From NCBI RefSeq assembly GCF_003334355.1, contig NZ_QOWP01000006.1: a DNA stretch of 64,000 nt, one strand, 5' to 3'. A program made the position numbers and the translations under genes. Positions 47,676 through 48,167 of this stretch are shown in pieces (positions within the stretch are counted from its first letter, which is position 1; each line of letters opens with the position of its first letter). The stretch comes from Escherichia coli (lineage in GTDB: Bacteria > Pseudomonadota > Gammaproteobacteria > Enterobacterales > Enterobacteriaceae). A model generated the notes under the pieces. It had not been told where the DNA came from. It did not search any database and worked only from the letters and a program-made list of their open reading frames with translations.

Positions 47676-47844
47676 TGCACGCCACCATTCATCATCTGAT
47701 TTATCTTTTATCGTAGCCAGTTCCGCAACAATATCTGGAGATCTTCACTGATATTTATATCAACCTTGATAAATTATGAATATATCGGAAATTGAAAAAA
47801 TCGCAGCAAAGGAAATATTATTATGGGTTAAAGAAAGGATATTT

Positions 47845-47876
47845 CAGAAAAATGCCCTCCCGTTCAAGGGGAAGGC
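47845..47876 (-). terminator. intrinsic terminator of ppnP
   Basis: CCTTCCCC...GGGAGGG hairpin followed by CATTTTTCTG just after the ppnP stop. Confidence 0.55.
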
Positions 47877-47882
47877 GAGGAA

Positions 47883-48167
47883 TTACAGATAGCGGCACAG
47901 ATAAGAGGTGGGTTCGGCAACTTGCAGATGAAACTCACTGTGACCGGGAACATTAAACACCGAACCGGCTTCATACACCTGCCAGTCGGTCGCGTCAGGC
48001 AGTAACACATTCAGCGCGCCACTGATTACCGTCATCTCTTCGGGCTCAGCGGTGCTGAAGGTGTATTCGCCTTCAACCATAACACCCACGCTGGCGCGAC
48101 CAGTGCTGCTGCTGGAAAAGCCGATTGATTTCACTTTGCCGGAAAAGTACTCATTACTTTGAAGCAT
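47883..48167 (-). CDS. ppnP: pyrimidine/purine nucleoside phosphorylase PpnP (YaiE)
   Basis: 94 aa [30 protein letters not shown]. Confidence 0.9.

Follow-up and report, generated by a model that had tools for sequence, protein, structure and literature searches.

The AT-rich DNA between ppnP and ykiA of Escherichia coli raises the question of whether it marks a small gene, the remains of inserted DNA or a control region. The window analyzed here, that is, the whole stretch of 64,000 nucleotides, has a mean GC content of 51.4%. Positions 47690-47892 reach 34.5%, which is among the lowest 0.8% of 203-nt windows by GC and forms one of only four troughs in the 64 kb; the core of the tract (47736-47853) has a GC content of 26%. 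The other troughs, at 4417-4619, 54995-55197 and 61559-61761 (GC 0.29, 0.25 and 0.35, respectively), are at least as AT-rich. The low-GC tract of about 200 bp described by a first-pass annotation is thus genuine, and the ATG-initiated ORF of 38 codons that it listed on the plus strand is present at 47776-47892. Its placement of the tract between the ykiA frame and ppnP holds for the intergenic part proper, 47736-47882, but not for 47690-47735. These 46 bases, with which the reported tract opens, belong to the 5' end of the ykiA remnant, since the annotated pseudogene spans 47394-47735 on the minus strand.

A megablast search of 5426 complete E. coli genomes, read alongside the RefSeq annotation, gave the gene order mak-rdgC-ykiD-ykiA-ppnP-aroM at this locus. 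Identity to MG1655 was 99.7% over 5.5 kb, and the arrangement is that of K-12, yet the window is not MG1655: two differences were found within 47200-48200, of which only the one at 47828 lies inside the tract. The genes and the ORF concerned are the following.

47883..48167, minus strand: ppnP (yaiE) coding sequence, from the ORF list and the RefSeq annotation of locus L001 and MG1655.
47394..47735, minus strand: ykiA pseudogene, annotated by RefSeq as 'DUF2773 domain-containing protein, missing N-terminus'.
47314..47397, minus strand: ykiD, 27 aa, from annotation and comparison with an intact 151-aa SF0329-family gene.
47776..47892, plus strand: 38-codon ORF, ATG to TAG, from the ORF list; judged a chance ORF.

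Our analyses suggested that the tract is very probably a composite non-coding control region of the minus strand and that the 38-codon ORF across it arose by chance. The anatomy, the comparative genomics and the tests on the ORF were obtained in this study, and the promoter activity, its BglJ-RcsB dependence and the start sites were taken from the literature. We infer the exact coordinates of the box and the -10 element, the involvement of H-NS and the signal peptide.

The part of the tract next to ppnP carries a predicted terminator.

47848..47876, minus strand: ppnP intrinsic terminator, from a terminator scan, fold energy and low variation.

Its G+C-rich stem of 8 bp (GCCUUCCC / GGGAGGGC) encloses a 7-nt loop (CUUGAAC) in a hairpin at 47876-47854; a U-run of five residues comes next at 47852-47848 (AUUUUU), and the whole lies directly 3' of the ppnP stop codon. 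The hairpin folded at -15 kcal/mol (z = -2.6) on the minus strand and at -12.4 kcal/mol (z = -1.1) on the plus strand. Across 11 haplotypes, the terminator was variable at only 1 of its 29 sites; nucleotide diversity was 0.006 there, compared with 0.048 for the tract and 0.039 for the third codon positions of ppnP. A comparable hairpin was found 3' of ppnP in other genera as well. Transcripts of ppnP would stop at this hairpin and its U-run, and the next ~110 very AT-rich bases would then serve as the promoter and short leader of a ykiA-ykiD unit.

That the tract acts as a promoter responsive to BglJ-RcsB has been published before, and the first-pass annotation overlooked this experimentally mapped promoter on the opposite strand (PMC3950696). 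The intergenic fragment upstream of ykiA was activated by BglJ as a lacZ fusion in an RcsB-dependent manner, the ykiA start site was located by 5'-RACE, and mutagenesis confirmed a BglJ-RcsB site centered 79 bp upstream of that start (Salscheider 2014, Nucleic Acids Res 42:2999, PMC3950696). In the same report, mutation of the first predicted motif, which overlaps the core promoter, was without effect, ykiA was treated as a 113-aa gene of unknown function, and bglJ itself was described as H-NS-silenced in K-12. Cappable-seq placed starts on the plus strand of U00096.2 at 407675, 407755, 407798 and 407822, with scores of 5.6, 4.5, 24.1 and 79.9, respectively, in the part of that dataset considered here (Ettwiller 2016). 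The window is reversed with respect to MG1655, and subtracting a window coordinate from 456344 gives the local MG1655 coordinate. With an offset between U00096.2 and U00096.3 coordinates that we take to be +776, these starts convert to 47893, 47813, 47770 and 47746 on the minus strand, in or beside the tract, and a purine stands at three of the four sites. The one at 47893 (407675, score 5.6) falls inside the last ppnP codons, upstream of the terminator. A -10-like element, TATAAAT, at 47759-47753, preceded by TG, would serve the strongest start at 47746, and a promoter-like CTGAAA-16-CATAAT at 47847-47820 (minus strand), found by the consensus scan, suits the start at 47813. In this reading, RNA polymerase initiates at several sites, namely 47813, 47770 and 47746.

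The position of the activator site was reconstructed from wwTTCykA, the published core of the BglJ-RcsB site, and the 79-bp spacing. The pattern matches the tract twice, at 47851-47844 (TTTTCTGA) and at 47792-47785 (ATTTCCGA). In the window it has 39 matches versus 29 expected, so that the pattern is not enriched and the box match alone is not significant. The former match lies 79 bp from the 47770 start, although the pattern is common in the window and the coordinates are reconstructed rather than taken from published figures. Specifically, 47770 + 79 = 47849, which falls within TTTTTCTGAAAT. We took 47770 as the putative BglJ-RcsB-activated start; the positions of the box and its -10 element are our own reconstruction. 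The second match, ATTTCCGA, at -22 to -15 of the 47770 promoter, fits the published motif in the core promoter whose mutation was ineffective. The strongest Cappable-seq start mapped in this interval, 47746, does not match the 79-bp spacing, and an activated start at 47813 or 47746 was rejected, as no TTC..AA box lies 79 bp away from either. The candidate box overlaps the U-run of the terminator; its block TTCTGnAAT is retained in all divergent Escherichia alleles, and so are A/T-rich -10-like elements. A BglJ-RcsB heterodimer would bind a box abutting the ppnP terminator and activate a start about 79 bp downstream.

47841..47852, minus strand: putative BglJ-RcsB box TTTTTCTGAAAT, from the wwTTCykA match and the 79-bp spacing.
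47779..47784, minus strand: putative -10 hexamer TATATT for the 47770 start, read from the sequence.
47746..47813, minus strand: three mapped starts, 47813 (weak), 47770 and 47746 (strongest), from Cappable-seq positions converted with the +776 offset that we assume.
About 47853-47740, minus strand: promoter and leader of ykiA, from PMC3950696 and the Cappable-seq starts.

Variation within the tract is unevenly placed. Eight of the 21 variable sites of the 142-bp intergenic tract cluster in 13 bp (47828-47840), between the putative BglJ-RcsB box and the promoters, and O157-type alleles carry five changes there. Two matches to the H-NS high-affinity motif were also found in the tract, each at 9 of 10 positions.

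47766-47775, plus strand: H-NS motif match TTGATAAATT.
47788-47779, minus strand: H-NS motif match CCGATATATT.

The motifs used for the matching are reportedly those of Lang 2007 and Bouffartigues 2007. The resemblance is suggestive of H-NS involvement at the tract.

The comparison across genera clarified where the low-GC DNA came from. Among 80 loci fetched with PpnP, at one genome per species, ppnP and rdgC were convergent and 40-100 bp apart with a single hairpin between them in 75 non-Escherichia Enterobacteriaceae loci (Citrobacter, Salmonella, Enterobacter, Klebsiella/Raoultella, Kosakonia, Buttiauxella, Cedecea and other genera). Extra DNA between the two genes was present only in Escherichia among the fetched loci. 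The ppnP-rdgC interval is therefore an Escherichia-specific insertion, being absent from the 75 loci of other genera, and the suggestion of a remnant left by older inserted DNA was upheld. It can also be sharpened: a two-gene insertion has suffered internal deletions here, and the tract is its surviving, terminator-proximal 5' control region. No integrase or transposase was annotated in the intact alleles.

The intact two-gene module was full-length in 444 of the 5426 complete E. coli genomes (~8%), including TB06052, strain 108, O157:H7 strains, NCTC9112 and LHM10-1; an example is locus L004, 268-2999. Its GC content is 35-47%, and that of the tract is 26-35%. The first gene encodes a protein of 759 aa with Pfam DUF2773 at residues 679-759, whose N-terminus, judged by eye, is signal-peptide-like, and which appears to be secreted; the second encodes the 151-aa SF0329-family protein. 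ykiA corresponds to the C-terminal 113 residues of the 759-aa ancestral protein, DUF2773 included, and YkiD consists of 11 N-terminal and 16 C-terminal residues of the 151-aa protein, joined by an in-frame deletion. The ykiD start overlaps the ykiA stop codon (ATGA), and in the intact module the SF0329 gene likewise overlaps the stop of the 759-aa gene. YkiD is included in a table of new small proteins (VanOrsdel 2018, PMC6001520).

47737..47745, minus strand: leader remnant GAAGAT and deletion junction, from alignment with intact alleles.

Similarity to the intact strains breaks off precisely where the 759-aa gene has its ATG, which corresponds to window 47739-47737. The first deletion removed that start codon and everything up to about codon 646; its junction lies between TGAAGAT and TGAGGAT, and it left ykiA. 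The second removes codons 12-135 of the SF0329 gene in frame, between AGTTACAGCG and AGTTACGGCG, and leaves ykiD. Both deletions lie between short imperfect direct repeats. Taken together, a low-GC insertion of two genes between convergent ppnP and rdgC, encoding an apparently secreted DUF2773 protein followed by an SF0329-family protein, would have lost most of its coding sequence through two short-repeat-mediated deletions, leaving the promoter, ykiA and ykiD.

Other elements were also observed in the interval. IS1 elements have struck it independently in two strains: in CUWW10 (L086 1-1534), IS1X2 lies directly after the U-run of the ppnP terminator and the DNA beyond is now beside ddlA, and in GDSC2239PM an IS1A copy splits the ykiA remnant. 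A palindromic repeat at 47240-47300 (GCCGGATGCGACGCC...GGCGTCTTATCCGGC), between ykiD and the rdgC stop, was read as REP-type, and a similar repeat occurs in the divergent Escherichia alleles L006 and L007. An Rfam search of 46500-49000 at a permissive threshold gave only a weak sub-threshold naRNA4 match at 47253-47288, inside this REP-like repeat.

Relatives of the two proteins differ in their spread. For the 759-aa protein, 5.8 billion clustered proteins yielded just six hits, which makes its family very narrow. Its sole distant full-length homologue (49% identity; L094 5001-7241) occupies another chromosomal site, flanked by sprT and an MFS sugar-transporter gene (galP by position), and has no SF0329 gene as a partner. 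For SF0329, 540 homologues were found, which share 55-65% identity although they come from distant phyla; the genes at L097 4001-4483, L098 4001-4483, L095 4001-4471 and L096 4001-4483 belong to this family. On metagenome contigs, a tyrosine recombinase is followed by ~15 small genes that all point the same way, and the SF0329 gene is one of them, in the company of Imm10 and Macro-domain genes; by this gene neighborhood the arrays resemble recombinase-associated orphan-immunity arrays. In Leminorella, the SF0329 gene lies two genes downstream of a WGR/DUF4240 gene. The confident AlphaFold model of SF0329 (pLDDT 88) had no counterpart among solved structures, and a literature search on DUF2773 and SF0329 returned nothing relevant. 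Together, these observations hint that the 759-aa/SF0329 pair may be an effector/immunity-type module.

The plus-strand ORF has to be weighed against this anatomy. It crosses the ykiA promoter, the putative BglJ-RcsB box and both the terminator and the stop codon of ppnP, and its antisense overlap with the ppnP coding sequence comprises the final three sense codons and the stop. The description of the ORF as antisense to the ppnP terminator region was accurate, as it covers the hairpin at 47854-47876 and the ppnP end. To count as the unannotated small gene that had been suggested, it would have to be a genuine, translated, de novo gene for a small protein, found only in E. coli and lying across the promoter and terminator of the other strand, and its antisense transcript would start in or beyond the ykiA remnant. 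This is highly improbable. In favor of a gene, the ORF has an ATG start and is open in all 11 sampled E. coli-type haplotypes, including O157:H7-type alleles and Escherichia sp. MOD1-EC7003, despite 17 variable sites; some automated annotations, in a few GenBank submissions including old ones, also name its peptide a 'hypothetical protein'. However, 8.8% of the possible substitutions would close the frame, and under neutrality it would be expected to be still open after 17-25 changes with a chance of 10-20%. Read in reverse complement, the last 13 codons (26-38) and the stop are the ppnP terminator, the spacer and the ppnP end; the last third of the ORF is set by the terminator and the stop codon of ppnP. 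When the conservation check proposed by the first-pass annotation was run, the start or the frame was found destroyed in 4 of the 5 other Escherichia lineages, whose ppnP genes show 88-94% nucleotide identity; E. albertii and Escherichia sp. E1V33 have ATA in place of the ATG, and premature stops occur in alleles L006, L007 and L010. The 17 variable sites, counted among ten distinct alleles, fall 7/5/5 by codon position, thus without an excess at the third position, and most of them change the amino acid; pN/pS is 0.64, as in the non-coding frames (0.62-1.55 for the other five). No Shine-Dalgarno sequence was found in the 20 nt upstream (TATATCAACCTTGATAAATT), and the best anti-SD duplex was 0 kcal/mol versus -3.1 to -6.9 kcal/mol for the neighboring genes. 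RefSeq annotated the ORF in 0 of 60 sampled genomes, the peptide had no NCBIfam match, and no protein family was found for it among 1.84 billion representative proteins; its relatives there were E. coli peptides of almost the same sequence, apart from a single hit to a repetitive 398-aa protein (five matched stretches, 41% identity over 22 residues). ORFs of this size are common besides: the window holds 268 ATG ORFs of at least 38 codons, and 53% of dinucleotide-preserving shuffles of 47650-47950 contain one. The small-gene claim was not sustained, and judged from its sequence the ORF is most likely an accidental open frame, i.e., noise.

The only promoter-like site near the ORF start on its strand was found by consensus scan.

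47792..47821, plus strand: promoter-like TTGAAA-18-TATTAT, 10 of 12.

This site lies inside the ORF, so a transcript from there could not encode it. The site could instead drive an antisense RNA over the ppnP 3' end that modulates ppnP, an idea we regard as improbable. AT-rich DNA of the H-NS type often carries spurious or antisense promoters, and the match to 10 of the 12 sigma-70 consensus positions speaks for the idea. Against it, the consensus match stands by itself, three haplotypes carry C instead of T at 47793, the second T of the first hexamer, and Rfam gave no match for such an RNA. A more serious contender, though still an unlikely one, holds that the tract is an inert fossil whose promoter signals are leftovers that fire only under artificial BglJ expression and do nothing for this genome, its AT-richness reflecting foreign origin and H-NS coating. 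About 92% of complete genomes have lost the gene that the promoter served, the tract changes at roughly the synonymous rate, IS1 replaced it in CUWW10 without obvious harm, two near-consensus H-NS motifs lie within it, and bglJ is H-NS-silenced in K-12 according to PMC3950696. However, the Cappable-seq starts considered here came from wild-type cells without BglJ overexpression, and ykiD, which lies downstream, appears among the small proteins listed as detected (PMC6001520). In addition, 47741-47882 was found at 94-100% identity in 5416 of the 5426 complete E. coli genomes, although common ancestry of one deletion could account for this retention.

The composite control region remains the preferred reading: the tract is the published promoter beside an ordinary terminator. 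For annotation, ykiA and ykiD of K-12 should be regarded as deletion relics of an uncharacterized two-gene module, which among the genomes searched occurs at the ppnP-rdgC site only in Escherichia. In K-12, the BglJ-RcsB target is in fact the region controlling a 759-aa protein whose N-terminus is signal-peptide-like; about 8% of complete E. coli genomes, O157:H7 included, still carry the gene for it intact.

These features can be set beside known systems. The predicted ppnP terminator resembles other rho-independent terminators in its G+C-rich 8-bp stem, 7-nt loop and five U, and it is steadier on the ppnP strand, but it differs in that its U-run is shared with the putative activator box of the next promoter. 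YkiD (VanOrsdel 2018, PMC6001520), like the 38-codon ORF, is a short ORF in the ppnP-rdgC interval; in contrast to it, YkiD is listed in PMC6001520, is encoded on the strand of the operon and overlaps the ykiA stop, whereas the 38-codon ORF has none of these attributes and fails the sequence tests. With the H-NS-silenced, activator-relieved promoters bgl, leuO, chiA and yidL, the tract shares AT-rich foreign DNA, BglJ-RcsB dependence and near-consensus H-NS motifs, but ykiA lies outside the loci examined for H-NS repression in PMC3950696. The closest counterpart is PykiA of K-12 itself, which is at the same locus (the ppnP/yaiE-ykiA intergenic region), points in the same direction away from ppnP and is one base apart (47828). 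Nothing material distinguishes the two; here ykiA is recognized as the C-terminal relic of a 759-aa gene, and our comparison showed that its promoter is intact up to the lost start codon of that gene.
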